Positions 8,975 through 25,278 of a stretch of DNA of 26,800 bases are shown in pieces. This DNA is from Candidatus Sigynarchaeum calidifontis (GTDB taxonomy: Archaea; Asgardarchaeota; Lokiarchaeia; Sigyniarchaeales; Sigyniarchaeaceae). The notes below the pieces were generated by a model. That model did not search any database and was not told the origin of the DNA. It saw only the letters and a program-made list of their open reading frames with translations. The position numbers and the translations under genes were made by a program. Position 1 is the first letter of the stretch. Each line of letters starts with the position of its first letter. The stretch spans positions 1 through 26,800 of the forward strand of contig JAUQYZ020000093.1 in NCBI GenBank assembly GCA_030587475.2, in the 5' to 3' direction.

Positions 8975-10048
8975 TCATGTTCTCGCGAAATGGGGAATCA
9001 CTTTCTGCGAGAGCAGCTGCAAAGAGCCCCAATAGTCGTCGCCGAAGATCTGGAACATGAAATGCTCGCAGCCAGCCTGGATCCACTTCTCGATCTGGCC
9101 AATGACCTCGTCGCTCGACCCGGCGAGGACCGGTTCCATGACCTTCTCGGGGGGAATGTTCGCTTTCATGGCGAATTCCATGGCCGCGCCCTGGTGGCGC
9201 TTGTGTTCGGAAACCCCCGGCTTGCTGAAATGCTTGATGAAATTCACCTTGTCGGGGACCTCTATACCGCAAGCTTTCATGACTTCCGGCCGCAAGCATT
9301 GAACCATGCCGATGTACTTCATGCGCTCTTTTGCAGCCGCGGGATCCTTGTCCGAGATGTTGATGAATGCGTTGTAGGCGAGCTCGACCGGCCGGCCTTC
9401 CGAGCGGACGATCGCTGCCTGTTCCTTGTAGAGACTTGGCGTTGCACCGACGGGGATCCACCCGTCCGCGTACTTCGCAGCCAGTTTCAAGGTGCGGGGG
9501 CTTCCAGCGGCCACCCAGATCTTGGGCGGTGGCGTGGAAGGCTCGTCAGCCTTTTTCTTGAACTGCAAGAATTGCTTGTTGAACTTGTAGTACTTCCCGT
9601 CGAATGATACCTTGTTCCTGGGATCCGACTCGAACATGAGCTTCATGACCTGGATCGCTTCCTCCATGTGCGACACCGGCTTGTCCGCGTTGATACCCCA
9701 TCCCGCCAAGTTTGGTCCCTCGCCCGCGCCGATACCAAGAACGAACCGGTTGTTGCTCATCTTTTGCATGTGCATGGCGTGTTGTGCCATCTGGACGGGG
9801 TGCGTGCGGAACACGTCGGATACCATGATGCCGACCCCGATTTTTTTTGTCACCATGACGATTTCAGCTGCCATGAGCCACGCGCTGTAGATTTCCGTAT
9901 AGTCCGGATACCAGTTCACGTGATCCATGACCGTGAGCATCGAATAATTGCCGAGATCCTCTATTATCTTCGCTGCCTTGAGCATCTCCTCCCGGCCATA
10001 TACCAAATTACAAAAGGCAGTTGCATTTTGGATGCTGAATTTGACCAT
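8975..10048 (-). CDS. LLM-class (luciferase-like) flavin/F420-dependent oxidoreductase
   Basis: MDH, HPVQMAQ, SNNRFVLGIGAGE, FDGKYY and PPKIWVAAGSPRTLKLAAKYADGW. Start is ATG 10048 (or GTG 10057). Confidence 0.92.
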   Translation of the reverse strand: MVKFSIQNATAFCNLVYGREEMLKAAKIIEDLGNYSMLTVMDHVNWYPDYTEIYSAWLMAAEIVMVTKKIGVGIMVSDVFRTHPVQMAQHAMHMQKMSNNRFVLGIGAGEGPNLAGWGINADKPVSHMEEAIQVMKLMFESDPRNKVSFDGKYYKFNKQFLQFKKKADEPSTPPPKIWVAAGSPRTLKLAAKYADGWIPVGATPSLYKEQAAIVRSEGRPVELAYNAFINISDKDPAAAKERMKYIGMVQCLRPEVMKACGIEVPDKVNFIKHFSKPGVSEHKRHQGAAMEFAMKANIPPEKVMEPVLAGSSDEVIGQIEKWIQAGCEHFMFQIFGDDYWGSLQLLSQKVIPHFART

Positions 10049-10089
10049 GCTTCTCACCCAGTGAAAATGCGATTTTGACTCTCTCTAGG

Positions 10090-10110
10090 TCGATAAAAGG
10101 ATTTTATCGA
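10090..10110. promoter_or_regulatory. Perfect inverted repeat, candidate operator
   Basis: TCGATAAAA-GGA-TTTTATCGA, about 40 nt upstream of the LLM gene start. Confidence 0.45.
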
Positions 10111-10307
10111 TCCAGTTCTATTTGCCTATCATCTTTTCGAGATTGGACGTGGAACAAACGGGGGGAAAAAATCGGCAACGCGTGATAACCCCGCGTAATG
10201 AAAGCTTTCACGAGGGCTCATGTTCCGATGTCTTATTTCGGTGCAGCAAATATTTTTTAACAATGTCCCGATCAATATCAAGCAAGTCATTGAGGACGTG
10301 TTCGCAA

Positions 10308-10799
10308 ATGGAGCGAGGAATGAGCATTGCAATCGTCGCCTTGATTCTTGGATTCGGATCAATGGCCATCGGGCTATACCATCTAATGCAGCCACAGGTT
10401 CAACAGCGAGGCGTCACGCAAACGTGGTTCGGAAGGAATGCATACAATTCCACCACGTCAAGTGTGCACCAAGACATCGGGAACTTGTCGATCTCGATTT
10501 CGGTTCACAGCGGAGAAGCAATATACGCCTTGTACTGCGCGACTATCAAGGTATCCGGGGGTTCACCTGGAAGTGCTGGCGTGCATGTTCGCTTTTGGTT
10601 GCGCAATGCGACATGGATCCAATTCTATGGCGGTTCAATTTGTTATAGCACATCGTGGGAATCCTTCTCAACACAGTATCTCATCAAGGGCGTGCAGCCG
10701 GGGGAATACAGCCTCGTGATGAGGTGGTACTTGTATAATGGAGCTACCTCGGCCGAAGCGCGAGATTCAACCGTGTTGGTACAAACGCTCGTGGCGTGA
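10308..10799 (+). CDS. Small membrane-anchored or secreted beta-rich protein
   Basis: MERGMSIAIVALILGFGSMAIGLY forms an N-terminal anchor, followed by a Ser/Thr/Gly-rich beta-strand pattern ending GEYSLVMRWY...TVLVQTL. The ORF extension to 10122 looks non-coding. Confidence 0.7.
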   Translation: MERGMSIAIVALILGFGSMAIGLYHLMQPQVQQRGVTQTWFGRNAYNSTTSSVHQDIGNLSISISVHSGEAIYALYCATIKVSGGSPGSAGVHVRFWLRNATWIQFYGGSICYSTSWESFSTQYLIKGVQPGEYSLVMRWYLYNGATSAEARDSTVLVQTLVA

Positions 10800-10827
10800 C
10801 ATTCCCCCGGGGTTATCCTCTCTTCCA

Positions 10828-10840
10828 TTTTTTTTTAAAA
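10828..10840. terminator. T-tract/A-tract between convergent genes
   Basis: T9 followed by AAAA between the stops at 10799 (+) and 10857 (-). Confidence 0.4.
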
Positions 10841-10856
10841 ATAGAATTTCGGGAGA

Positions 10857-11654
10857 TCACGACAATTTCCACAGGTACTCGTGTTCCAATGCCAGCCCCT
10901 TGAGTAACACGGCACCTCTTGGTTGATCCACCAGGATCTTCGCGAACCTCAAGGTTTCGGGATGCTTCTGTGCCAGGCTCTTGGCAAATTTCATCGTTTC
11001 ATCGGGCAAATCCGCATCCTTGAATATGTCATGGACGAGCCCGATCTCTTTTGCCTTTTGTGCCGGGATTTTTTCCCCCGTGAAGATCATCTGCTTCGCA
11101 CCCGGCGTCCCGAGCACGCTCACCGCACTTTGCGTGCCGCCCCATGCAGGAAAGAGCCGCATGTCGATCTCTGGCAATTGGAAAACGGCCTTTTCCCCGG
11201 CGAACCGGAAGTCGCAAGCGCATGCTATCTCGCAACCACCGCCGATCGCATAGCCGTTGACCTGTGCGATAACCGGCTTCCACTTTTCCGAGATTTCAAA
11301 CTTCGGGTTCTCGTCGTGGGCAAGTGCATCCCAGAACTCCTTCGGGTCATCATTGTGTTCGTTGCCCGTCATTATCTCCAGGATCATGAGCCTTCCGAAA
11401 TCGGTGAGCCAGCGCATTTTATCGGGTGGCGTGCCGTACATGGACTTCAAGTCTTGGCCCGTGGAGAACGAGTCGCCCGCGCCCGTCAATATGATCACCC
11501 GGATCGCCTTGTCTTGACGCAATTCACGCAGCACGTCCCGGAACTCCTTCCTCGCAGGCTCGTCGAACGCATTCTTCACCTCGGGCCGGTTGATCGTTAC
11601 CACCCCGACACGTCCCTTTTTTTCGACCAAAATGCTTGTGCCCACGTTTTTCAC
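10857..11654 (-). CDS. Enoyl-CoA hydratase/isomerase (crotonase) family protein
   Basis: VTINRPEVKNA, FSTGQDL, KPVIAQVNGYAIGGGCEIACACD and FQLPEI...PAWGGTQ. Both catalytic Glu positions are present. Confidence 0.95.
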   Translation of the reverse strand: MKNVGTSILVEKKGRVGVVTINRPEVKNAFDEPARKEFRDVLRELRQDKAIRVIILTGAGDSFSTGQDLKSMYGTPPDKMRWLTDFGRLMILEIMTGNEHNDDPKEFWDALAHDENPKFEISEKWKPVIAQVNGYAIGGGCEIACACDFRFAGEKAVFQLPEIDMRLFPAWGGTQSAVSVLGTPGAKQMIFTGEKIPAQKAKEIGLVHDIFKDADLPDETMKFAKSLAQKHPETLRFAKILVDQPRGAVLLKGLALEHEYLWKLS

Positions 11655-11694
11655 CTTCGTGCTTGTAATGAAAAGAATAATGGAGCCCGGTGGT

Positions 11695-12222
11695 TTATTT
11701 CTCGCTGGCCTTGGATGGATCCTTGATCAACTTGGCTGCATCTTCGATGGCATCGAAATACTCGATATCGCTCAAGTTTCCCTGGAGCTCGCCATCGCGC
11801 CATTTTACCTTGACGGGCATGCCGACGTACACGTCATCGAACTTGATCTTCGGGTTCATTTCCACGATATAGATCGTGTCGGCACCGTCTAGCCGCACGG
11901 CCACGATAGGAACGGGCACCAGCTCGCCCGTTTTTTCGTCCTTGTCGTAGGTGGCAGTGAACGTCGCGACGACGCCGGTTTCACGCAAGCCCACCCACTT
12001 GTCCGGCATGGTCATGCACCTGGGACAGATGAGCTTGGGGGGAAAGAACGTCGTGTTGCAGCCTGTACACCTTAACCCGACAAGTTTCCTCTGCTTGAGC
12101 ATCTCGAAACACGTTTTCACGGGCGTTATGTTGAACTTGTACTTGCAAGACGACAAGTACCACTTGCCTTCAACGGTCCTCGTCCGCGGGTATTCCTTCT
12201 TCACATAATCGAGCTTTCCCAT
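11695..12222 (-). CDS. DUF35 family Zn-ribbon/OB-fold acyl-CoA-binding protein
   Basis: LVGLRCTGCNTTFFPPKLICPRC, GVVATFT, VRLDGAD and VGMPVKVKW. Starts 3 nt after the thiolase-like stop. Confidence 0.92.
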   Translation of the reverse strand: MGKLDYVKKEYPRTRTVEGKWYLSSCKYKFNITPVKTCFEMLKQRKLVGLRCTGCNTTFFPPKLICPRCMTMPDKWVGLRETGVVATFTATYDKDEKTGELVPVPIVAVRLDGADTIYIVEMNPKIKFDDVYVGMPVKVKWRDGELQGNLSDIEYFDAIEDAAKLIKDPSKASEK

Positions 12223-12225
12223 TTT

Positions 12226-13482
12226 TTAATCACCTCCCTTCCACTTGCGCTTCTGCTTGTCGCTCAGAACCATTAGCGTAACGAGATTGATAACTCCACC
12301 CCATGAATGTGCGAGAGCGTTGTGCACGGTTCTTGGCACTTGGTTCCCCGCCTTGCCCATGATTTGCAGCGCTGCCTCGGCGATCCGTTCGAGCCCCGAT
12401 GCCCCGATGGAATTGGTCGAGTTCACGCCGCCAGAGCAGTTCACGGGTAGCTCGCCGTTCGGTGCCGTCGTCCCATCGCGATACCGGAAATGCGCGGTGT
12501 TTTCCTTGAACAAGCCGAGTCGCTCGAGCCAGAAGAGTTCCTGGTTCGGGAATGGCGAGTATACCTCCACGTAATCGATTTCCTTCTCGGGGAACGAGAT
12601 CCCGGCCTGCGAATAGGCCAGCTTCGCTGACTCGACCGCACCTACTTGCTCGCAGGGGTCTATCTGCTCCGTTCCCGATCCGGCATATCCAACCATGGCA
12701 TTCACGTTGCTCACGCTCGCGACACCATTAACGAACACGGGAATGTCCGTGAACTGCTTGCTCTTTTCTTCCGTGGTGAAGAGCACCGCACATGCCCCGT
12801 CTGTCGCCGGGGTCAACATGCCGTATCGCAGCGGGTAGGACACGTACGGCGTATCTAGAACATCCTGGATCGTGAGATTTGGCATTTTCAAGTGCGTGTA
12901 CCAGTTTTTCGCCGCGTTGTGCCGGTTCTGCACGACGACACGGGCGAGGTCCTCCTCGGTACATCCGCTCCGTTTCATGTAATTGATGGCCTGGTACGAG
13001 GCGAGGCCGATTGCACCGCCAGCACCGAAGATGCGTTGCATCTTGTCCATGGAAAGACCGAACTTCGTGAACAACGAGACCTCCGCGTAGGCAACGGATG
13101 CAAGGCCGACGCTCGTGTCGCCGCATGATTGCTGCTCGAATCCCACGACCAACACGTTGTCGATACCAGGTAAACCCGCGGCAACATTGTAATAGCCTGC
13201 GATCCCGATGGAACCACCCGTGGTGCCGCCCGTGGTCACGCGCATGAGTGGCTTGTCCCGCGCCCCCATCCAGTCGGTCATCCAGAGTTCCGGGAAACCG
13301 ATGCCCTCGAAGCCCGGCATGTTGCCCGTGACGAAGGCGTCGATGTCCTTCAGCTCGCAATTGGCATTTTTCAAGCAGTTATCAATGGCCTCGCGGACCA
13401 TCTCTGCCATGTTCACGTCGGAACGCTTCGACGCGTGCGCGCAAAAGCCCGCCCCTGCAATCGCGACTTGTCTGCCCGCCAT
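12226..13482 (-). CDS. SCP2-thiolase-fold protein, Ltp3-like (putative aldolase subunit)
   Basis: Thiolase-fold motifs DGACAVL, EVYSPF and PVNCSGG. FEGIGFPELWMTDWMGARDKPLMRVTTGGTTGGS closely follows my recollection of mycobacterial Ltp3. No nucleophilic Cys. TGATG overlap with the upstream gene. Confidence 0.88.
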   Translation of the reverse strand: MAGRQVAIAGAGFCAHASKRSDVNMAEMVREAIDNCLKNANCELKDIDAFVTGNMPGFEGIGFPELWMTDWMGARDKPLMRVTTGGTTGGSIGIAGYYNVAAGLPGIDNVLVVGFEQQSCGDTSVGLASVAYAEVSLFTKFGLSMDKMQRIFGAGGAIGLASYQAINYMKRSGCTEEDLARVVVQNRHNAAKNWYTHLKMPNLTIQDVLDTPYVSYPLRYGMLTPATDGACAVLFTTEEKSKQFTDIPVFVNGVASVSNVNAMVGYAGSGTEQIDPCEQVGAVESAKLAYSQAGISFPEKEIDYVEVYSPFPNQELFWLERLGLFKENTAHFRYRDGTTAPNGELPVNCSGGVNSTNSIGASGLERIAEAALQIMGKAGNQVPRTVHNALAHSWGGVINLVTLMVLSDKQKRKWKGGD

Positions 13483-14627
13483 CACTTTTCCCCTCCTTCC
13501 AAGACGTATAGAATGCTATTCTGCGCGCAGAAGCCCCATTGCCCGGTGGCGATCGCCCGCTTGACACCTGGCACCTGGTGGCCCTTCGCTTCTCCCTTGA
13601 TCTGCTTCACCGCCTCGATGATGCGCACCAGCCCCGCCGCGAACAGCACGTTCCCGCTCATGGCGCCGCCCGATGGATTGATCGGCATGTCGCCGTCAAT
13701 GCCCGAGGCAAGCTTCGATGCCTGCCCCGGCTGGGCAAGGCCGATGGCCTCGGCCTGGATCAGCTCCTCGTGGGCGAAATGCTCGTACAACTCTGCCACG
13801 CAGATCTCTTTTTTCGGATCTGTGATGCCAGCCATTTTAAAGGCCATCTTGGCGGCATTTTCCATCGATTTGCTCTTGCTCAAGTCCCGCTCGCCGAGAT
13901 AATATTGTTCTTGCGAGTACCCGACACCCGTGATCCACACCGGGTCGTCGGTGATCCGCAGCGCTTGTCGTTCTGGCGCGAGCAAGACGCACGCCATGCC
14001 ATCGCATGGCCTGGCGTACATTTTCTCGGTAACCGGCGAACTCAACATTTCCGATTCGAGCACGTCCTTCACCGTGATATTGTTCTCTTGCGATTCAGGC
14101 AGTGCCAGGTCGTTTTTCGCTGCGTTCTTCCGGTTCTTGACGGCGACGCTCGCGATGTCCTCGGGGCCCACCTTGTATTTGTTCATGTATGCCCGCATCT
14201 GGAACGCGCCGGCCGTCATGACGTTGAGCGCCTCGACTTGCCGCTCGAAGGTCGGGTCGGTCGACATCAGCGAAACCGACTCGTACGGGAAGCACGATGC
14301 CATGCTCCCGCCCCAGACCGCGACGAGCTTGTGGTTCCCCGAAAGTACCCGCATCATGCCGTATAGCATGGCATACGCGGCATCCATCTCGACCTTTGTC
14401 TCGTCCTTCAAGTAAGACCCGGATGGCTCGACGGTGAAACAATTGGAGATCGTCCTGCCATCGTAGAAATCGTTCGTGGCGCTAACGACCGATGTCAAGT
14501 CCTTCCGTTCCAGCTTGGCGCTGTCCAGGGCACCCCTGACCGCGTGGAAAACGGCGTCGTACCGGCCCATGTCCAGGTCCATCGACGGCTTGATCTGGTA
14601 ATACCCGACGATGCCTACCTTGTCCAC
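13482..14627 (-). CDS. SCP2-thiolase-fold protein, Ltp4-like
   Basis: True start is GTG 14627 (VDKVGIVG) after GGAGGGG. NDFYDGR...ETKVEMDAAYA parallels recalled Ltp4 (DYLAGR...ESHVEMDAAWA). Also DGMACVLL, AELYE and INPSGG. Confidence 0.88.
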   Translation of the reverse strand: MDKVGIVGYYQIKPSMDLDMGRYDAVFHAVRGALDSAKLERKDLTSVVSATNDFYDGRTISNCFTVEPSGSYLKDETKVEMDAAYAMLYGMMRVLSGNHKLVAVWGGSMASCFPYESVSLMSTDPTFERQVEALNVMTAGAFQMRAYMNKYKVGPEDIASVAVKNRKNAAKNDLALPESQENNITVKDVLESEMLSSPVTEKMYARPCDGMACVLLAPERQALRITDDPVWITGVGYSQEQYYLGERDLSKSKSMENAAKMAFKMAGITDPKKEICVAELYEHFAHEELIQAEAIGLAQPGQASKLASGIDGDMPINPSGGAMSGNVLFAAGLVRIIEAVKQIKGEAKGHQVPGVKRAIATGQWGFCAQNSILYVLEGGEK

Positions 14628-14629
14628 GT

Positions 14630-15100
14630 TTATGCCCCTCCGGCGACCTTGAACCCCTTGATGTCGTTCGGGGTTCCTTGCAATTTCTTGTTCCAGACGA
14701 TGTCGAGCTTCATCCCGATCTTCATGTCTTGCTCTTGCGCGTCGAGAATGGGAAATATCATGGCCGTGTTGCTGCCATCGATCTGTACCAGCCCGAATAT
14801 CGTCACCTTCTCGTTTTTCTTTTTTCTCCGCTCCGAGACCGTGTACCGCGTCGCGGTGAAGTTGAGCAGCGTTCCCTTGGCCGCGAGCTCGACCCACTGG
14901 CCTTCGAGCGGGATCGTCGCTGCACAATCGCCACACGCTTTCCGGGGCGGTACATAGACCTTCTTGCACGACGGGCACTTGATACCTACGATCTTCTGTT
15001 TTTCGAGGCCGTCATAAAACTTGTCCATGTATTTCCCGACCCAATATTCATAATCGGCTCTAACGATGCCTTCTGTGCGTTCTATCCATTTTTGTGCCAT
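14630..15100 (-). CDS. DUF35 family Zn-ribbon/OB-fold acyl-CoA-binding protein
   Basis: ATG 15100 (MAQKW). IVGIKCPSCKKVYVPPRKACGDC, GTLLNFT, VQIDGSNT and IGMKLDIVW. Confidence 0.92.
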   Translation of the reverse strand: MAQKWIERTEGIVRADYEYWVGKYMDKFYDGLEKQKIVGIKCPSCKKVYVPPRKACGDCAATIPLEGQWVELAAKGTLLNFTATRYTVSERRKKKNEKVTIFGLVQIDGSNTAMIFPILDAQEQDMKIGMKLDIVWNKKLQGTPNDIKGFKVAGGA

Positions 15101-15214: not shown

Positions 15215-15652
15215 CTATCCATCGGAATTTTTGCTACCGTGCATATCTAAAGAGATCTCCTCCCGGTTCGCGTGGATCAACGAGGCAAGATCGTACAGTT
15301 CACGTTTAAAGCTCAGAACGATGTTATTTTCGATAGGAAGCTCGACCAAGGCTCTATTATTAATGAAATCATCGACAGCCTTATCAATATCGACTATTCG
15401 CGTTTCTTTGAAATAATCAAGAAGAAGGTGGAGATAATATGCTTTTACATAGCTATTTTTAACTGGATCCTTGTGATACAAGTATTTTATCACGAAATAT
15501 CGCTGGTCGTCCTTGAATTGATTGGGGGCTGCATCCACGTTGAAAAACGTCGAGAACGAGCCGTAATCGATGATTTGATTGACAACGTGGGCAGTCGACT
15601 CGCTGATCCCTGCTTTCTTTGCCCATCTTGCATGTACCATCCAATTTGGCAT
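15215..15652 (-). CDS. Small putative Zn-dependent hydrolase (phospholipase C/P1 nuclease-like or YdjM-like motifs)
   Basis: ATG 15652. N-terminal MPNWMVH, a conserved-looking IID, and YYLHLLLD (HxxxD) fit this helical metal-binding pattern. Confidence 0.6.
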   Translation of the reverse strand: MPNWMVHARWAKKAGISESTAHVVNQIIDYGSFSTFFNVDAAPNQFKDDQRYFVIKYLYHKDPVKNSYVKAYYLHLLLDYFKETRIVDIDKAVDDFINNRALVELPIENNIVLSFKRELYDLASLIHANREEISLDMHGSKNSDG

Positions 15653-15752
15653 CCAGGAAAAACCACCGGTCGTTTTAACATGGTATTTAATGCATTTGGA
15701 ATTTTTATTCCCGCCGCGCACCGGTGCATTATCGATCAACCAAGGCGATCCT

Positions 15753-16832
15753 ATGATTCGGACGAAAATATGCGACATGCTCGACATCACGTATCCCATC
15801 ATCCAGGCCCCGATGGGTCCTTATGATACAAAAGATCTCGCGGTGGCAGTTGCAAATGCAGGCGGGTTCGGGATGGCAAGTCATCCCGTTCCCGATCCCC
15901 AATTTGGCATTGCGACGATCATCTCCGATGACGAGACGAGGGCGAAGGCATACGAGAATATCAAGCAAAAATTCATGGGGAGCGTGCGCCACGTCGCGGC
16001 GAATGCGAAGGGAAATTTCGGCGTGAACTTCCGGGTGGCGACCGTGCAGTTCGATGTCCCGCTGCTCCTCGACGAGTTGCTGAAGGAATACGACACGAAT
16101 CCCGCCGTCAAGAAAAAATTGCGGGTCGTCATCTGCTCGGCGGGGGATCCCTCGCAGCGATACTTGAGAAAGATCAAGGACGCGGGCCTGCTCCGGTTCC
16201 ACACGGTGCCGAGCGTGTACCATGCCAAGAAAGCTGAGAAATCGGGTGTTGATGCCATCGTGGTCACCGGATACGAGGCCGGCGGGCACGTTGCCCACGA
16301 ACCGTTCCATACTTTTGTTACAGTACCAGAAGTCATCAAATCCGTGAATGTTCCTGTCATTGCAGGCGGGGGTGTCTGCGATGGTCGCGGCCTCGTCGCC
16401 ATGCTCGCGTTCGGCGCGCAAGCGATTTACATGGGAACCCGGTTCATCGTGACGAAGGAATGCGAGTTCAACGACAAGGTGAAAAACCTCATCATGGAGT
16501 CCTCGATCAAGAATCCACGGGAGGATCCCACGATCGTGACGCAAGGCGTTTATGGCCCCCTGCGACACTTGAAAAACAAGTTCGCCTTCGAGCTCGCCGA
16601 GATGACGCAGAAGCTCAAAAGGAAGGAGATTTCCATCGAGGACGTGTACAAGTTCGAATCGGTCGCGACGTATCGGGCCAAGGGTCCCGAGGGGAATCTC
16701 GATGACGGTGCCATCTGGTGCGGGCAAGTGGCTGTCCGGTTGCACGAAAAATTAACGTGCAAGGAGGTCATCGATGGCATCATGGCAGAAGCCACGGAGA
16801 TCATGCAACGCCTTGGCAAGCTCGCTGCATGA
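15753..16832 (+). CDS. Nitronate monooxygenase/FabK-like FMN-dependent oxidoreductase
   Basis: MIRTKICDMLDITYPIIQAPMG, LAVAVANAGGFG, GYEAGGH, PVIAGGGVCDGRG, MGTRF and WCGQVA. Confidence 0.93.
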   Translation: MIRTKICDMLDITYPIIQAPMGPYDTKDLAVAVANAGGFGMASHPVPDPQFGIATIISDDETRAKAYENIKQKFMGSVRHVAANAKGNFGVNFRVATVQFDVPLLLDELLKEYDTNPAVKKKLRVVICSAGDPSQRYLRKIKDAGLLRFHTVPSVYHAKKAEKSGVDAIVVTGYEAGGHVAHEPFHTFVTVPEVIKSVNVPVIAGGGVCDGRGLVAMLAFGAQAIYMGTRFIVTKECEFNDKVKNLIMESSIKNPREDPTIVTQGVYGPLRHLKNKFAFELAEMTQKLKRKEISIEDVYKFESVATYRAKGPEGNLDDGAIWCGQVAVRLHEKLTCKEVIDGIMAEATEIMQRLGKLAA

Positions 16833-16950
16833 GCGCGGCATGTTCGCATCGGCCGTCCATTTTCTTACTATTTTTTTAAATATTCCCTTGCCGTTTCTTG
16901 AAGCAGCACGTGTATCTCCAGAACACATCGACAATGGAAGCGATCTCATC

Positions 16951-18081
16951 ATGACAAGCGTAAAAACATGCGCGGTCATCGGTCCTGGTGGCCAAGGTGG
17001 CAGTTGGGCCAATCGGCTGTACAAGCACAAGGAATGCAAGCTCGTCGCGGTATGCGACATCAACGGGAAGCGCGCGAAGCAAGTAGCGGCTGCAAATGGT
17101 AATTGCAACGTGTATACAGATGTCAACCAGCTTTTCGAGAAAGAACGGCTGGATTTTGTTGTCATCGCCACGCCGCACTATCTCCACGCGCCGTTCACGA
17201 TCCTCGCGGCGGAGCACGACGTGAATGTCTTGTGTGAGAAACCGATGGCCATCAACCTCCAGCAATGCGACGAGATGATCATCGCCGCCCGGAAAAACGC
17301 CATAAAACTTGGCTTCGGGTTCCAGCACCGCTTCGAGCTCGCGCACCAGTACGCTTACGACGCGGCTCGCGGTGCCAAGGGCGACCTCGGTGACCTCGGC
17401 CGCATCACGGACTTCCAGTTGCATGCGAAGCATTACCGTAGCGGGTCCTACTACCTCACGTCGTCCCAGGTCGACCCGAAAACTGGCGTCGCCCCTGGGC
17501 CGTGGCGTGGTCGCTGGCAGACAGAGGGCGCCGGCATCTTGATCAATCAAGCGGTCCACGATCTCGATATCTTTCAATATATCGTCGGCCCGTTCAAGGC
17601 CCTCTCGGCACATGCCGCGACGATCGCGAGGGAGCACGCGCTCATCGAGGTCGAGGACACGGTTGCAGTTTCGTTCACGACCTTGAGCGGTGCCGTCGGC
17701 ACGATGATCTTCAGCTCGTCGAACAAGAATGCACCGGGTAATTTCTACCGGGTGAGCGGCGAGAACGGCTACGTCGAGGTCGCGAACAACATGGTCCGGG
17801 CCGACACGCGATACAAGAACGAGGAGGACTGGGAAGTGCCCTTGCAGCCCCCGCCCCGGCACAACTTGCTCGAGAACTTCATCGATGCGATCGATAAAGA
17901 CGTGGATCCCTTGATCCCGCCAGAAGAGGCGCGCAAGTCGATCGAAATCATACGTGCAATCCTCAAGTCGGTTCAAGAAGAGCGCACTATTTACTTCCCG
18001 GTCAAGGATACCATTGCCTATCCAACCATCCACAATGTATCAAGAGATAATCCGTTGAAACCAGAGGACATGGGCTTTTAG
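16951..18081 (+). CDS. Gfo/Idh/MocA family NAD(P)-dependent oxidoreductase
   Basis: AVIGPGGQG, IATPHYLH, VLCEKPMA, WRGRWQTEGAGILINQAVHDLD and VEDT. Confidence 0.95.
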   Translation: MTSVKTCAVIGPGGQGGSWANRLYKHKECKLVAVCDINGKRAKQVAAANGNCNVYTDVNQLFEKERLDFVVIATPHYLHAPFTILAAEHDVNVLCEKPMAINLQQCDEMIIAARKNAIKLGFGFQHRFELAHQYAYDAARGAKGDLGDLGRITDFQLHAKHYRSGSYYLTSSQVDPKTGVAPGPWRGRWQTEGAGILINQAVHDLDIFQYIVGPFKALSAHAATIAREHALIEVEDTVAVSFTTLSGAVGTMIFSSSNKNAPGNFYRVSGENGYVEVANNMVRADTRYKNEEDWEVPLQPPPRHNLLENFIDAIDKDVDPLIPPEEARKSIEIIRAILKSVQEERTIYFPVKDTIAYPTIHNVSRDNPLKPEDMGF

Positions 18082-21599: not shown

Positions 21600-22766
21600 T
21601 CAGAGCTCCTTGATTTCTGGCGGTGCGATATAATCCACGTACTTGTCCTTTATCTTCGCAGATCGAGCGTCCCCGGCATGCGCGATGAGCCGGTAGAAAA
21701 ACGAGATGGAGCTACCTTTTGCCAATATATAATCCCCGTTCAGCTTCCCCTTGGTGAAATGTTTCAATCCAAATGGGTTCGCGGCAAATAAACCATAGTC
21801 CCGAACGTGCCAGTACGTGGGATGGCGGAAGCTCTCGGGGTGCTCGAGCATCGCGAAACCAACGCGGTTTCCTTTCACTATTCCCGAATAGTCAACCCAC
21901 GGGGCCTGTTTTCCCCAGCATCCCTTTTCACCGACCGCTCCATAGAAGTTTTCGATGCGACCGCCCTTGTCGCCATCCATGGATGTCGCCACGCGCACGG
22001 CGAGGAGGCCGCCTTCCTTCGTGTCGCCGAACCTCACGTCGTCGTTGATCGCGGTGAGCGCGATAGAGAAATCGATGGTCTGCAGCCCACGGGGAAGGTT
22101 GAAAAATCGCATCTCCCGGCGTTCCTCCAAGTCGACGTCGCCGAACTTGTTCTTCCACTCGTTTCGGAGCACGATCTGGCCGGCGGCGACGCCGGACCTA
22201 GCAACTGGCACATCTTTTGTGGCCTGGATGCCCGCCATGTCCGTTGCCGACCAGTGATCGACCTCGTTCACGTCGCCATACGCGGTCCAGATCGACGTGT
22301 GGTGCGGGTGGTCGTTCGTCTCGCCGGACACGCCTTTTTTCATCGGGAAGTGGCGGGTGATGGGCTCGCCGAACGGCCCGATGAAGGGGTAGAGATACGG
22401 CCGGAGGCCATCGTTCACGTGCAGTGTCGTGAACGGCTCGCCGTTGATCTTGACCTCGTACTCTTTTTCTCCCTTCTTGCTGATGTCGACGGGGTTCTTC
22501 TTGGTGATCCCGTCCTTCCACGAGGGACCATCTGGATCCACGCCAAGCTCTAGCTCTTGATCAGGATGCATGTATGGGATGACCATCGCGATCTCGGTTT
22601 TGTTCTCCTCGGTCGTCCACGCGTCCACCGGGTACCACGTGTCCTTCTCTTCGTCCTTGAACCAGACGATGCCATCGATCCCGTAGTTTTTATCCAGTAC
22701 CTTGGTCACGGGGCAATTAATTCGCTCGTGTGCCCCGGCCAGGACGACAATGTGCAGCTCTTGCAT
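21600..22766 (-). CDS. DUF6807 ('PmoA family', PF14100-like) protein, not a methane monooxygenase
   Basis: RPYLYP...ITR, DHPHHTSIW, FGDTKEGGLLAVRVA, WVDYSG and WHVRDYGLFAANPFG. Soluble and beta-rich. Confidence 0.85.
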   Translation of the reverse strand: MQELHIVVLAGAHERINCPVTKVLDKNYGIDGIVWFKDEEKDTWYPVDAWTTEENKTEIAMVIPYMHPDQELELGVDPDGPSWKDGITKKNPVDISKKGEKEYEVKINGEPFTTLHVNDGLRPYLYPFIGPFGEPITRHFPMKKGVSGETNDHPHHTSIWTAYGDVNEVDHWSATDMAGIQATKDVPVARSGVAAGQIVLRNEWKNKFGDVDLEERREMRFFNLPRGLQTIDFSIALTAINDDVRFGDTKEGGLLAVRVATSMDGDKGGRIENFYGAVGEKGCWGKQAPWVDYSGIVKGNRVGFAMLEHPESFRHPTYWHVRDYGLFAANPFGLKHFTKGKLNGDYILAKGSSISFFYRLIAHAGDARSAKIKDKYVDYIAPPEIKEL

Positions 22767-22818: not shown

Positions 22819-24390
22819 TCACGGCGGGGGCAGCCGGAAATCGATCACGGGATCGACCAAGCCCGCAGCGGCGAAGCCCTCGGCACGTTCCCTGCACGGC
22901 TTGCAATGGCCGCACGGGCTTGCATCGTCGAAGGCGCAGCTCCACGTCCATTCGAACGGGACGCCGAGGGTTTTTCCAAGCCTGACCACGTCTCCTTTCG
23001 TCTTTCCCTTCAAGGGGAGAAGGAAGGTAGGGGCCACGGCCTTTTCACCGACCTTGAGCTGGGCCACGAGCTTCTCGATAGCATCGAAAAACGGCTGGTT
23101 TGCATCGGGCAGCGGGTCTGACGTGATGTGGCCCGAGATGATGTACCTTGCCCCGTAAATGTCTGCAAAATAGGTCGCGATGGCGTTGAACACCAGGTTG
23201 CGATAGGGCACGTAATAATCGGACGAGCCGAACAAGCTCGGCACCGGATACCCGGCGAGCTTGAGCTCGAGCACCTCCATGATGTACGGGACGGGAACGT
23301 CCACGGCCTTGATGCCAAGTGCCTTGCAGACCTGTTCGACCGCTTTCACCTCGCGGGCCGGGCGATTGTGGTAGTGCATGGAGAGTGGTATCACCTCGTA
23401 GCCCTGGTTGCGCATCCAGTAGAGCGTGGTCACCGAATCGAGCCCGCCCGAGAATAACATGACGGCCCGCTTCTCGGGCATCGGCTCATCTGGCTTCAAG
23501 ATCGCCCGCACAGCCGCGGTAATTGCACCGTTCACGGTGGAAAGCTGCATGTCAAGGTCTTTCATCAAGGTATTCGGATCCCCTCGCGCTTTGCACGCGA
23601 GAAACTGGAATGATTCATCGATGTTTGATGATTCTTGATTGGGGAGAATGCGTTCTATCACTGGCGGGGATATGTTTACGTTCGCATCCCGGATGGCTTG
23701 ATATATTGCCATGACGAGTGTTTCGACGGTCATCGGTTCTGGTCCGACGAGATCGTATGTGTGATCGTGCAAATCCTTTGCTACGGCCGCTTTGATAACC
23801 GCGGTCGCGGCATCGTCGATCGATATTGGTTGGACGAGGCCCCCCTCCATGTAGGGATACCGTACACGTCCCCCGGCGATCGCCTCGAGCACCGCCCGGG
23901 TGAACCAGTCCCCTGGGCCGATGATGAAAGACGGGCGAAGGATCGTGTAATTAATTCCTGATTCCTTCACGAGTGATTCCGCTGCCTCTTTTGACCGTAA
24001 ATATAATCTGGTTGCCGGCGTGCAAGCGCCAGGCACGCCGACACCCAACCCCGAAACGTAGACGATCCTCTTCACAGCTGCATTCCGCATGGCGCTGAGC
24101 ACCCGGCCGAGCAGCTTCACGTTGACCTCGTCGACATGGCTCTCGGAACCGGTTCCTGTTGCTACCAGATGAATGACTGCCGTGGCACCTTGAAACGCGG
24201 CTTCAAGATCGTTCACGAAATACCCGTTGCATATACACGCATCGATGCCAAGTTGCTTGATTTCTTTAGCTGCTTGAAAACTACGGACAATCCCTCTGAC
24301 GGGAATCCCTTGTTTCTTTGCTAATTTGATGATAGCCGTTCCCAGGAAGCCGTTCGCCCCTGTTATTGCGATCAACGTCGTAATAACCAT
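22819..24390 (-). CDS. queC: Fusion of an atypical SDR (NDUFA9-like NAD(P)-binding) domain and a QueC-like 7-cyano-7-deazaguanine synthase domain
   Basis: ATG 24390. N-half: ITGANGFLG, YLRSK, ILRPSFIIG and QPISIDD. C-half from about 23481: AVMLFSGGLDS, YVPYRNLVF, K.DVVRLG..LGVP and TWSC-x7-CGHCKPC. No stop codon between the domains. Confidence 0.9.
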   Translation of the reverse strand: MVITTLIAITGANGFLGTAIIKLAKKQGIPVRGIVRSFQAAKEIKQLGIDACICNGYFVNDLEAAFQGATAVIHLVATGTGSESHVDEVNVKLLGRVLSAMRNAAVKRIVYVSGLGVGVPGACTPATRLYLRSKEAAESLVKESGINYTILRPSFIIGPGDWFTRAVLEAIAGGRVRYPYMEGGLVQPISIDDAATAVIKAAVAKDLHDHTYDLVGPEPMTVETLVMAIYQAIRDANVNISPPVIERILPNQESSNIDESFQFLACKARGDPNTLMKDLDMQLSTVNGAITAAVRAILKPDEPMPEKRAVMLFSGGLDSVTTLYWMRNQGYEVIPLSMHYHNRPAREVKAVEQVCKALGIKAVDVPVPYIMEVLELKLAGYPVPSLFGSSDYYVPYRNLVFNAIATYFADIYGARYIISGHITSDPLPDANQPFFDAIEKLVAQLKVGEKAVAPTFLLPLKGKTKGDVVRLGKTLGVPFEWTWSCAFDDASPCGHCKPCRERAEGFAAAGLVDPVIDFRLPPP

Positions 24391-24684
24391 CCCTTCAAAA
24401 TCGTTGCAAAATCGAGACCATAGTTCGAATGGACAAACATGTCTATAAAAACGCACTGCTATGCTTGTACATCGTGAAGTCGACCCCGCCCTCGCGAAAC
24501 GTAAGACGACAGAAGGCAATTGGTGCCTTTTTGACCAAGCTCGAGCCCGGGGCTTTTGGCTGCCACGTGCACTCTCGGAATCGAGGCTACATGATGACTT
24601 TTTTATAGGCCCGGTGTCATATCAACATCGTTATAGTTTAAGAATTCCCGTCCAGAGTCGGAAAACAAAAAAGATGAGAAAATA

Positions 24685-25278
24685 ATGCTATACGCGGCGT
24701 TCGGAAACTTGGGGATCATCGCTTTGATATTGATGTGGATTTTCCAAGGCTTTAACTTGAAATTCATCGATCAAATCGTAGATGAAGGGAAAAAAGTGCA
24801 TATCCTCGTGATATGGTTCGTCATGGTTCTATCAGGGATTGCCGCGGGATTTTTCATGTGCGTGGATTCGTTCACTGGTGGTTGTGTCCTTGCACTGATT
24901 CTTGGTATGATCATTGCAAATAAAATCGATCATAAATTATGGTTCGTCCAAATTATTCTCGTGCTTGGGGCATACATCGTTTTTTTAAACTTGTTCATAA
25001 GGATCGGCGTGCCCTTGATCGCTGATTTTTTCGAGGTCATCACCGTATTCGTCATCGTGCTCTTTGGATCAATCCTCGATGAGGTCATCCATGATGCTTC
25101 TATAACGAGAAATTCCAAGTTCTTGAATTTATTTGGCGGGTTCCGGATGATCATGAAATTTATCGTGATTATCATGGCTATCGTGTTCCCCACGTTCATC
25201 TTTTGGTATCACGCTGTCGCATGGTTGCTCTTTGATATAATGTATGAGATCCAAGCACGTCGGGCATTGAGGACGTAA
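24685..25278 (+). CDS. Hypothetical integral membrane protein (about 6-7 TM)
   Basis: Highly hydrophobic 197-aa ORF with polar motifs KFIDQIVDE, NKIDH and LDEVIHD. Confidence 0.8.
   Translation: MLYAAFGNLGIIALILMWIFQGFNLKFIDQIVDEGKKVHILVIWFVMVLSGIAAGFFMCVDSFTGGCVLALILGMIIANKIDHKLWFVQIILVLGAYIVFLNLFIRIGVPLIADFFEVITVFVIVLFGSILDEVIHDASITRNSKFLNLFGGFRMIMKFIVIIMAIVFPTFIFWYHAVAWLLFDIMYEIQARRALRT

Follow-up and report, generated by a model that had tools for sequence, protein, structure and literature searches.

A distinct QueC subfamily joined to a short-chain dehydrogenase/reductase in Asgard archaea and Bathyarchaeia, and a diverged copy in Candidatus Sigynarchaeum calidifontis

We describe here a gene in which a short-chain dehydrogenase/reductase (SDR) domain is joined in frame to a QueC-type domain. 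The gene lies on the minus strand, at positions 22819..24390, of a stretch of 26,800 nucleotides (nt) from the genome of Candidatus Sigynarchaeum calidifontis (contig JAUQYZ020000093.1), the whole of which is referred to below as the window. It belongs to an SDR-QueC family that is a new, undescribed form of QueC with a reductase-type partner. In the main clade of fusions, and in the forms with two separate genes, genomic patterns indicate that the QueC part most likely turns 7-carboxy-7-deazaguanine (CDG) into 7-cyano-7-deazaguanine (preQ0) for archaeosine. The SDR is an accessory partner, lost by at least one lineage. For the window's own copy, the genomic evidence leads us to give about an even chance to a neofunctionalised paralogue that is not the housekeeping preQ0 synthase.

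In the account that we favor, the module would combine an extended SDR that binds NADP(H) with a QueC part of a distinct subfamily. This second part is a PP-loop ATP pyrophosphatase, has a Zn(Cys)4 site, and is expected to adenylate a carboxylate. The two parts appear as separate, translationally coupled genes in Bathyarchaeia and were apparently joined by a single fusion event ancestral to one Asgard order. The window's copy would probably still adenylate a carboxylate and bind NADP(H), with either its substrate or its product changed.

The fusion protein of the window

The longest open frame runs from 24519 to 22819 on the minus strand and has TTG at its 5' end. The probable start is the ATG at 24390, which is immediately preceded by a purine-rich stretch and gives a protein of 523 amino acids (aa) followed by a stop codon (22819-22821). 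A candidate archaeal TATA box, TTTTATAG, is predicted on the same strand at 24443..24450, 53-60 nt upstream of this ATG. The fusion had been proposed in an earlier, sequence-only reading of the window, and the open reading frame (ORF), its translation, and an AlphaFold2 (AF2) model bear it out: there is a single minus-strand ORF with two Pfam domains, and each motif named in that reading (GxxGxxG, YxxxK, KPDEP, SGGLDS, VP.RN, and four cysteines) is present. The same reading was correct in placing no queD, queE, or tgt near the fusion, and this holds across the whole window.

The N-terminal part (aa 1-298; 23497..24390, minus strand, as are all features of the protein) is an extended, atypical SDR domain of the NDUFA9/NmrA-like type, as judged from Pfam, from sequence matches in the PDB, and from Foldseek. 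Pfam assigns NAD_binding_10, Epimerase, and NmrA (PF13460, PF01370, and PF05368) to aa 5-265 with E values from 1.6e-24 to 3e-11, and the best PDB sequence matches are NDUFA9, SimC7, and triphenylmethane reductase; weak similarity to acyl and thioester reductases is also seen. The Rossmann motif G11-A-N-G14-F-L-G17 is at 24340..24360, with G11 and G14 invariant in 67/67 fusions. An arginine of the NADP type, Arg36, follows strand 2 (24283-24285), and the catalytic Ser113 (24052-24054) stands ahead of Tyr130-x3-Lys134, which reads Y130-L-R-S-K134 (23989..24003). Arg36, Ser113, and Lys134 are invariant across the family, and Tyr130 is kept in 73 of 76 sequences. The invariant Arg36 suggests a preference for NADP. 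Free-standing SDR homologues stop at the same boundary as this domain; there the linker KPDEPMPEK (aa 299-307; 23470..23496) begins, and it is at the linker that alignments place the division of the split forms into two genes.

The C-terminal part (aa 308-523; 22822..23469) is a PP-loop ATP pyrophosphatase domain of the QueC lineage, identified by PF06508, TIGR00364, and the structure of Bacillus subtilis QueC (3BL5), its best PDB sequence match (E 7e-16). PF06508 covers aa 308-509 at 137.8 bits (E 4.5e-40; model positions 1-209 of 210; gathering threshold 22). The PP-loop SGGLDS (aa 314-319; 23434..23451) is invariant in 76/76 sequences, and VPYRN (aa 394-398) matches VPxRN, including the essential arginine that corresponds to R99 of Escherichia coli QueC. 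The zinc site, Cys485-x7-Cys493-x2-Cys496-x2-Cys499 (22894..22938), has four invariant cysteines with a spacing one residue shorter than the canonical C(x)8CxxCxxC, and Ala486 stands where canonical QueC has an essential tyrosine. Where canonical QueC has YPDC, the window's protein has LPDA (aa 427-430; 23101..23112), and the canonical YxQxHxxE reads Y340-H-N-R-P-A-R-E347, which keeps the Tyr and Glu and replaces Gln by Asn and His by Pro. On TIGR00364 the domain scores 113.8 bits, under the equivalog cut-off of 150.3. By its sequence, then, the domain is complete as a fold and as an ATP/Zn core, yet not as canonical QueC. The sequence-only reading had called it a complete QueC domain; this stands for the fold, the PP-loop, VPxRN, and Zn(Cys)4, and fails for YxQxHxxE, YPDC, the Tyr after the first zinc Cys, and the TIGR00364 cut-off.

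An AF2 model of the fusion, calculated from an alignment of 21 homologues, predicts a confident two-domain body (predicted local distance difference test score [pLDDT] 89.7; predicted template modeling score [pTM] 0.84). In a Foldseek search with this model, residues 1 to ~310 superpose on NDUFA9, UDP-galactose 4-epimerase, and cinnamoyl-CoA reductase at E values of ~1e-17 over some 310-340 aligned columns.

Recurrence of the fusion and its split relatives

A search of 5.8 billion proteins returned 27 full-length homologues at 36-82% identity. All of those with a taxon label come from Asgard archaea, and their database name is "7-cyano-7-deazaguanine synthase." When 400 genomes of the phylum were scanned at E <= 1e-40, 71 had a match, nearly all full length and every one in a single order; by family the tallies were 65/135, 2/3, and 1/1, with two QueC-only matches in a fourth family of the same order and no match in any of the other 29 families. 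A scan of species-representative genomes, with one genome per species and combined with a separate hidden Markov model (HMM) scan, gave 49 further full-length Promethearchaeota fusions (>= 505 aa) and a few cut at contig ends. The full-length fusion is found in only three clusters at 50% identity in an exhaustive HMM search of 1.84 billion cluster representatives, which also contain many free-standing SDRs (~300 aa) and QueCs (~220 aa) belonging to the two subfamilies of the fusion.

Outside the Asgard order, the two parts are encoded as neighbors. Bathyarchaeia and Thermoproteota have split pairs, SDR then QueC, with a stop/start overlap or a gap of <= 3 nt; in a Nitrososphaeria genome the two genes are 2.6 kb apart; and one uncultured bacterium has the reversed pair, QueC then SDR. 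More distant SDR relatives in Nitrosopumilaceae have no adjoining QueC. In a FastTree phylogeny the fusions form one clade (support 0.92) that is sister to the Bathyarchaeial split pairs.

Whether the fusion recurs in independent genomes was a question raised by the sequence-only reading, which had also considered that it might be a singleton whose relatives have unlinked genes. It does recur, in the genomes of the phylum and species representatives counted above, and the split pairs abut or overlap. An artefact of assembly, binning, or gene calling was rejected and has, in our estimate, practically no chance of being the explanation: the same uninterrupted frame is present in more than 60 independent genomes, closed chromosomes included.

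Other fused QueC architectures were seen as well. Seven cluster representatives (P0102, P0119, P0123, P0131, P0145, P0150, and P0160) have a ComB-like 2-phosphosulpholactate phosphatase domain (PF04029) fused to a QueC that scores as canonical (237-251 bits), an architecture of which we know no description. A rare reversed fusion of QueC with an SDR resembling GDP-mannose dehydratase is found in P0124, P0200, and P0215 (L138), all three on short contigs, and P0187 is a fusion of QueC with a radical SAM (QueE-like) domain.

A QueC subfamily apart from canonical QueC

The canonical PF06508 signature consists of SGGxDS, YxQxHxxE, VPxRN, YPDC, a conserved Lys, and C(x)8CxxCxxC, and in E. coli QueC the mutants Y35A, R99A, Y131A, and Y189A are inactive and Y131F is partly active (PMC13329287). 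The SDR-linked subfamily keeps the PP-loop, the RN, the Lys, and the four Cys, and reads YxxRPxxE and [F/Y]PDA. Its members score 137-155 bits on TIGR00364, near the 150.3-bit cut-off.

The module as the probable housekeeping QueC

Five near-complete genomes from the main Asgard family have no strong QueC-family match other than the fusion, which scores 165-178 bits, with the next match below 29 bits. Each of these genomes has an ArcS-like ORF, all but one have arcTGT, and QueE-like candidates are present; the ArcS-like ORF of G207 scores 158.6 bits on the ArcS-specific domain. Likewise, five genomes with split or reversed pairs have no better QueC elsewhere.

A census of the order at E <= 1e-20, covering 95 genomes that are >= 90% complete, shows how the two forms are distributed. 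Canonical free-standing QueC (208-246 bits) was found in 13 genomes, the fusion in 49, and a free-standing QueC of the fusion's subfamily in 2; a further 2 (G187 and G191) have only C-terminal QueC fragments of 108-109 aa, and 28 have no QueC, among them all four genomes of one genus. Canonical QueC and the fusion replace each other even inside one genus, and only the window's genome has two strong QueCs, one of each kind. In about 50 of 55 loci, the fusion has a gene of the PTPS/QueD family upstream of it in divergent orientation. Such complementarity, with queD linkage added to it, is classically the mark of two forms that share one function, and it is for this reason that we take the module to supply preQ0 in the main clade.

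Main-clade loci of one synteny type (L027:7090-7686 and others) also have genes for Snf7/ESCRT-III and a type II 3-dehydroquinate synthase just upstream of queD.

The window's copy and its clade

The sequences closest to the window's fusion, here called group A, number 18 and come from two small families of the order; the named members are of the Sigynarchaeota type. All four group A genomes that were checked (the window's genome, G281, the single-contig G280, and G130) carry both a canonical QueC of 214-239 bits and a fusion of 127-140 bits. The canonical QueC of the window's genome, on contig C125, scores 183.5 bits on TIGR00364. Its queD-queC operon (L038:8427-10128) runs on into a gene for a 177-aa phosphoribosyltransferase-like protein, which has weak matches to xanthine and hypoxanthine phosphoribosyltransferase models.

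An inventory of queC, queD, queE, queF, arcTGT, and arcS, proposed in the sequence-only reading, was made for the window's genome, which is 89% complete. Besides the canonical queC and queD on C125, it has a second PTPS gene on contig C189, a QueE-like candidate on contig C136 (52 bits), an arcTGT (TgtA) at 466.8 bits, and a 705-aa ArcS-like ORF at 299.6 bits, below the 440 cut-off. There is no match to QueF, a T-fold protein (PF14489), in the fusion protein or in this genome. The C125 QueD is nearer to the fusion-linked QueDs than is the C189 PTPS (median identity 45% versus 38.5%). With this inventory, the ordinary archaeosine route appears to be complete without the fusion.

The clade is set apart at its presumed pockets. 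The equivalent of E. coli Tyr131 is Leu in 18/18 group A sequences and Phe in 49/49 of the main clade, and that of Tyr189 is Ala, Glu, or Val in 18/18 compared to Tyr in 49/49. On the SDR side, the Trp of WATN is absent from 18/18 group A sequences and present in 49/49 of the main clade, and the Glu of GDELIP, found in 49/49 of the main clade, is mostly Tyr or Trp. Thus, in place of the main-form SDR motifs WATNxYFxSK and GDELIP, the window's fusion reads TPATRLYLRSK and GDWFTR. The core residues of both domains are invariant in group A too (SGGxDS, RN, Lys465, and the four Cys; GxxGxxG, Arg36, Ser, and Lys), on which ground we argue that the window's protein is a working one; the residues that correspond to Tyr35 and Arg99 of E. 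coli QueC are kept in it as well.

In the phylogeny, group A comes out as monophyletic (support 1.0); its stem measures 0.42 substitutions per site, compared to 0.09 for the main clade, and identity inside group A is 47-82%. Its genes are not beside queD. Instead, 52 nt downstream of the window's fusion and on the same strand, there is a gene for a 388-aa DUF6807 protein (21600..22766, minus strand; Pfam, 209 bits) that is probably cotranscribed with the fusion, and a same-strand DUF6807 gene follows the fusion by 35-70 nt at 6 of 8 group A loci. The link is suggestive. No paper on the function of DUF6807 was found in a literature search, and the AF2 model of the protein, from five orthologues, has a pLDDT of 38.7, too low to use.

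The long stem, the canonical QueC alongside, the fixed pocket changes in both domains, and the usual DUF6807 neighbor are our grounds for a neofunctionalised paralogue, and a diverged second paralogue fits what the sequence-only reading had kept as its fallback, a fusion acting on another substrate. The competing idea is that the window's copy is a second, redundant preQ0 synthase whose pocket changes are neutral drift under redundancy. This isozyme would retain, as is observed, the full ATP/Zn catalytic core and the Tyr35 and Arg99 equivalents, its nearest relatives most likely act as QueC, and QueC is still its best family match. Drift, however, sits poorly with substitutions that are fixed across the clade and not scattered (Leu in 18/18 and an aromatic residue in 0/18) and that fall in both domains together, with a long stem branch followed by 47-82% identity within the clade, and with a gene that has left queD and gained a new neighbor; moreover, the corresponding alanine mutants of E. 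coli QueC are dead (PMC13329287). We therefore consider the isozyme unlikely.

Several points weigh against the reading that we prefer, in which the main clade supplies preQ0 and the window's clade has taken a new function. The substitutions studied in E. coli were limited to Ala and Phe, so Leu at the Tyr131 position might still permit activity, and the copy could then be a redundant isozyme after all. The phylogeny is a quick FastTree calculation with one bacterial pair as its root. For the preQ0 role of the main clade, the basis is patterns of presence and absence in metagenome-assembled genomes; the QueE candidates match weakly, and no full arcTGT was found in the closed genome G189. The DUF6807 neighbor is absent at two group A loci (L130 and L131), and a Gfo/Idh/MocA gene of high conservation, found in the window at 16774-18081 and thus at a distance of 3.5 kb, is also present in syntenic loci, so that the DUF6807 link may reflect synteny with that gene and not a shared function.

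What the SDR may do

At a mean identity of ~42%, the fused and split SDRs have Gly11, Gly14, Arg36, Ser113, Lys134, and Arg152 invariant and Tyr130 in 73/76 sequences, and the subfamily is marked by two substrate-side motifs, YGxxxWATNxYFxSK and FRPSYILGPGDELIP. This pattern looks like that of a working NADP(H)-dependent active site. The SDR is nevertheless not indispensable, because G205, a genome that is 100% complete, retains QueC with only an SDR remnant: at L037:1022-2621, queD is followed by 100 aa left of the SDR N-terminus and then by an intact 222-aa QueC, the sole QueC of the genome. In G132, G133, and the bacterium G405, a subfamily QueC is likewise found with no adjoining SDR gene.

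The sequence-only reading had the SDR reduce the product of QueC and saw in this a candidate new branch of 7-deazaguanine chemistry. The tie to 7-deazaguanine metabolism holds up, given the adjacency of queD and the role as sole QueC in relatives. The reduction itself is unsupported as stated: the module mostly behaves as an ordinary supplier of preQ0, being mutually exclusive with canonical QueC and accompanied by arcTGT and ArcS, and one lineage has deleted the SDR.

In its explicit form, this proposal has the QueC domain adenylate CDG or the amide and the SDR reduce the activated species or the nitrile; the outcome would be preQ1, an aldehyde, or some other reduced 7-deazaguanine, with no need of QueF. 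Tight coupling of the domains, whether fused, encoded by overlapping genes, or reversed in order, would suit such a sequence of reactions, as would the confident two-domain arrangement predicted by AF2 (pTM 0.84), the family-wide conservation of the Ser-Tyr-Lys triad and Arg36, and the weak similarity to acyl and thioester reductases; yet G205 dropped the SDR and retained the QueC part. Archaeal arcTGT uses preQ0, and coupled reduction would starve archaeosine synthesis wherever the module is the only QueC. QueF was not found in any genome examined, and one bacterium has Tgt, QueA, and the QueC-SDR pair without it. In the bacterial order around G402 (three genomes), though, QueA is present in 3/3, QueF in 0/3, and the SDR only in G402; G405, of the same order, has the subfamily QueC alone, and since it is without both the SDR and QueF, the absence of QueF does not track the SDR. 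To our knowledge there is no nitrile-reducing SDR. Taken together, we think coupled reduction quite improbable.

All three genomes of this bacterial order, in which QueF was not detected, have genes of the Tgt/QueA type, and in G402 and G405 (L137:11498-12208 and L136:7622-8413) a LOG-family (Lysine_decarbox/SLOG) gene divergently adjoins the subfamily QueC gene.

Alternatively, the SDR may not be an enzyme at all, and may sense NADP(H) or act as a scaffold that tunes or anchors the QueC domain. This is compatible with the explanation preferred above, and we regard it as possible, if on the unlikely side. Among solved structures, NDUFA9 subunits and NmrA-like proteins come nearest to the SDR in sequence. 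The NADPH of NDUFA9 is a structural ligand, and argininosuccinate synthetase, which is also an adenylating enzyme of the PP-loop type, is bound and regulated by the NmrA-like HSCARG. The preQ0 pathway (QueD, QueE, and QueC) needs no redox step, and the SDR is dispensable in G205 and does not adjoin the subfamily QueC of G132, G133, and G405. What argues against a non-enzymatic role is that Ser, Tyr, Lys, and the substrate-side motif (WATNxYFxSK and GDELIP) are strongly conserved in Asgard archaea and Bathyarchaeia, which is more typical of a working active site.

A further reading, again possible if on the unlikely side, is that of a working reductase that, with the QueC-type adenylating domain, would make a 7-deazaguanine other than preQ0, such as a reduced or aldehyde form, and might take the place of the missing final step of archaeosine synthesis in Bathyarchaeia; group A would have moved to another carboxylate, possibly together with DUF6807. 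The Bathyarchaeia G400, G401, and G404, and also G403, have arcTGT and the split SDR/QueC pair, with only a short unfused QueC. ArcS was not found in these four genomes, where DUF5591 matches only the C-terminal domain of arcTGT itself, nor was any match to the QueF family (PF14489). By its position only, the SDR is a candidate for the last archaeosine step in Bathyarchaeia; as far as its chemistry is known, that step involves no redox reaction. Either case, if true, would add a new branch to the deazapurine or PP-loop chemistry of Asgard archaea and Bathyarchaeia.

Other genes of the window

Upstream of the fusion, and divergent from it, is a gene for a hydrophobic, probable membrane protein of 197 aa (24685..25278, plus strand), recognized from its translation; it has homologues in syntenic position at L010, L012, and L029 and no Pfam match. 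In the close relatives L132 and L010, the membrane-protein gene is separated from the fusion by two genes without a Pfam match (~521 and 426-436 aa). These two genes are absent from the window (24391-24684), where the membrane-protein gene is the immediate divergent neighbor of the fusion. Farther away there are a cluster encoding a luciferase-like monooxygenase, an enoyl-CoA hydratase, and two thiolase-C-domain-like proteins (8975-14978), a nitronate-monooxygenase-like gene (15579-16832), and a gene for a 269-aa protein (974-1783) with a weak match, 26.3 bits, to the PCI domain, which is the eukaryote-type module of the proteasome, COP9, and eIF3.

Comparison with known systems

The QueC step in the synthesis of queuosine and archaeosine has been regarded as solved and as the work of a single domain. 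Here, a distinct QueC subfamily is linked with a dedicated NADP-type reductase, as a fusion or as overlapping genes, in one whole Asgard order, in many Bathyarchaeia, and in at least one bacterium. Any reductase role would be new, be it in deazapurine chemistry, in redox sensing, or in the docking of another partner. The window's clade amounts to a natural experiment, a copy of duplicate function in which the catalytic core was kept and the pocket residues of both domains changed in concert.

A literature search found no paper on an SDR-QueC fusion, nor on archaeosine in Asgard archaea or Bathyarchaeota. The sequence-only reading had known of no Rossmann-reductase-QueC fusion, and none is described in the papers searched, including the 2026 survey of PF06508, which is silent on SDR fusions and on Asgard archaea alike and does not study three of the archaeal clusters (PMC13329287).

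Among SDRs, the best matches to the N-terminal part are atypical SDRs of the NDUFA9/NmrA/HSCARG type and NAD_binding_10 reductases such as SimC7 and triphenylmethane reductase, with which it shares GxxGxxG, the arginine for the 2'-phosphate, and the extended fold. The QueC-linked SDRs nonetheless form a subfamily of their own by WATNxYFxSK, GDELIP, and obligate linkage to QueC, and the window's clade is without both motifs. QueF, the NADPH-dependent preQ0 reductase, would have the cofactor and the pathway neighborhood in common with the SDR only if the latter were a nitrile reductase, which is hypothetical; the folds, T-fold and Rossmann SDR, are unrelated, and the thioimide chemistry of the catalytic Cys of QueF is not inferable for the SDR.

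The GAT-QueC of Crenarchaeota, a glutamine amidotransferase (GATase) fused to QueC, is linked to archaeosine formation in lineages that may lack ArcS. It resembles the present fusion as an archaeal QueC with an N-terminal accessory enzymatic domain, but the accessory domain here is a Rossmann SDR and not a class-II amidotransferase, and the Asgard genomes with the fusion also have ArcS. Identity with GAT-QueC was rejected, as Pfam gives no GATase match in the window's protein and its N-terminus is an SDR.

Cap9 and QatC, which act in protein deazaguanylation in CBASS type IV and Qat, respectively, have turned the same QueC-derived adenylating scaffold to new ends. The window's protein matches the Cap9 structure 9NTO at E 2.8e-10, and the PADLOC model of Cap9-type QueC scores 63.7 bits. 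Assignment to the defence QueCs was rejected: the QatC model scores 16.2 bits against a cut-off of 280, and the neighboring genes include no CD-NTase, Cap10, QatA/B/D, or defence match. Unlike Cap9 and QatC, the fusion is found in a housekeeping and not a defence context.

Canonical QueC (3BL5 and E. coli QueC; cluster 1 of PF06508) remains the best family match of the fusion and shares with it the fold, SGGxDS, VPxRN, the conserved Lys, and Zn(Cys)4. The fusion differs in its N-terminal SDR of 300 aa and in the replacement of YxQxHxxE by YxxRPxxE and of YPDC by [F/L]PDA. Members of the main fused clade probably do what canonical QueC does, serving as the genome's preQ0 synthase. In the window's clade the equivalents of Tyr131 and Tyr189 are Leu and Ala/Glu/Val, and the window's copy, with no adjoining queD, coexists with a true QueC.

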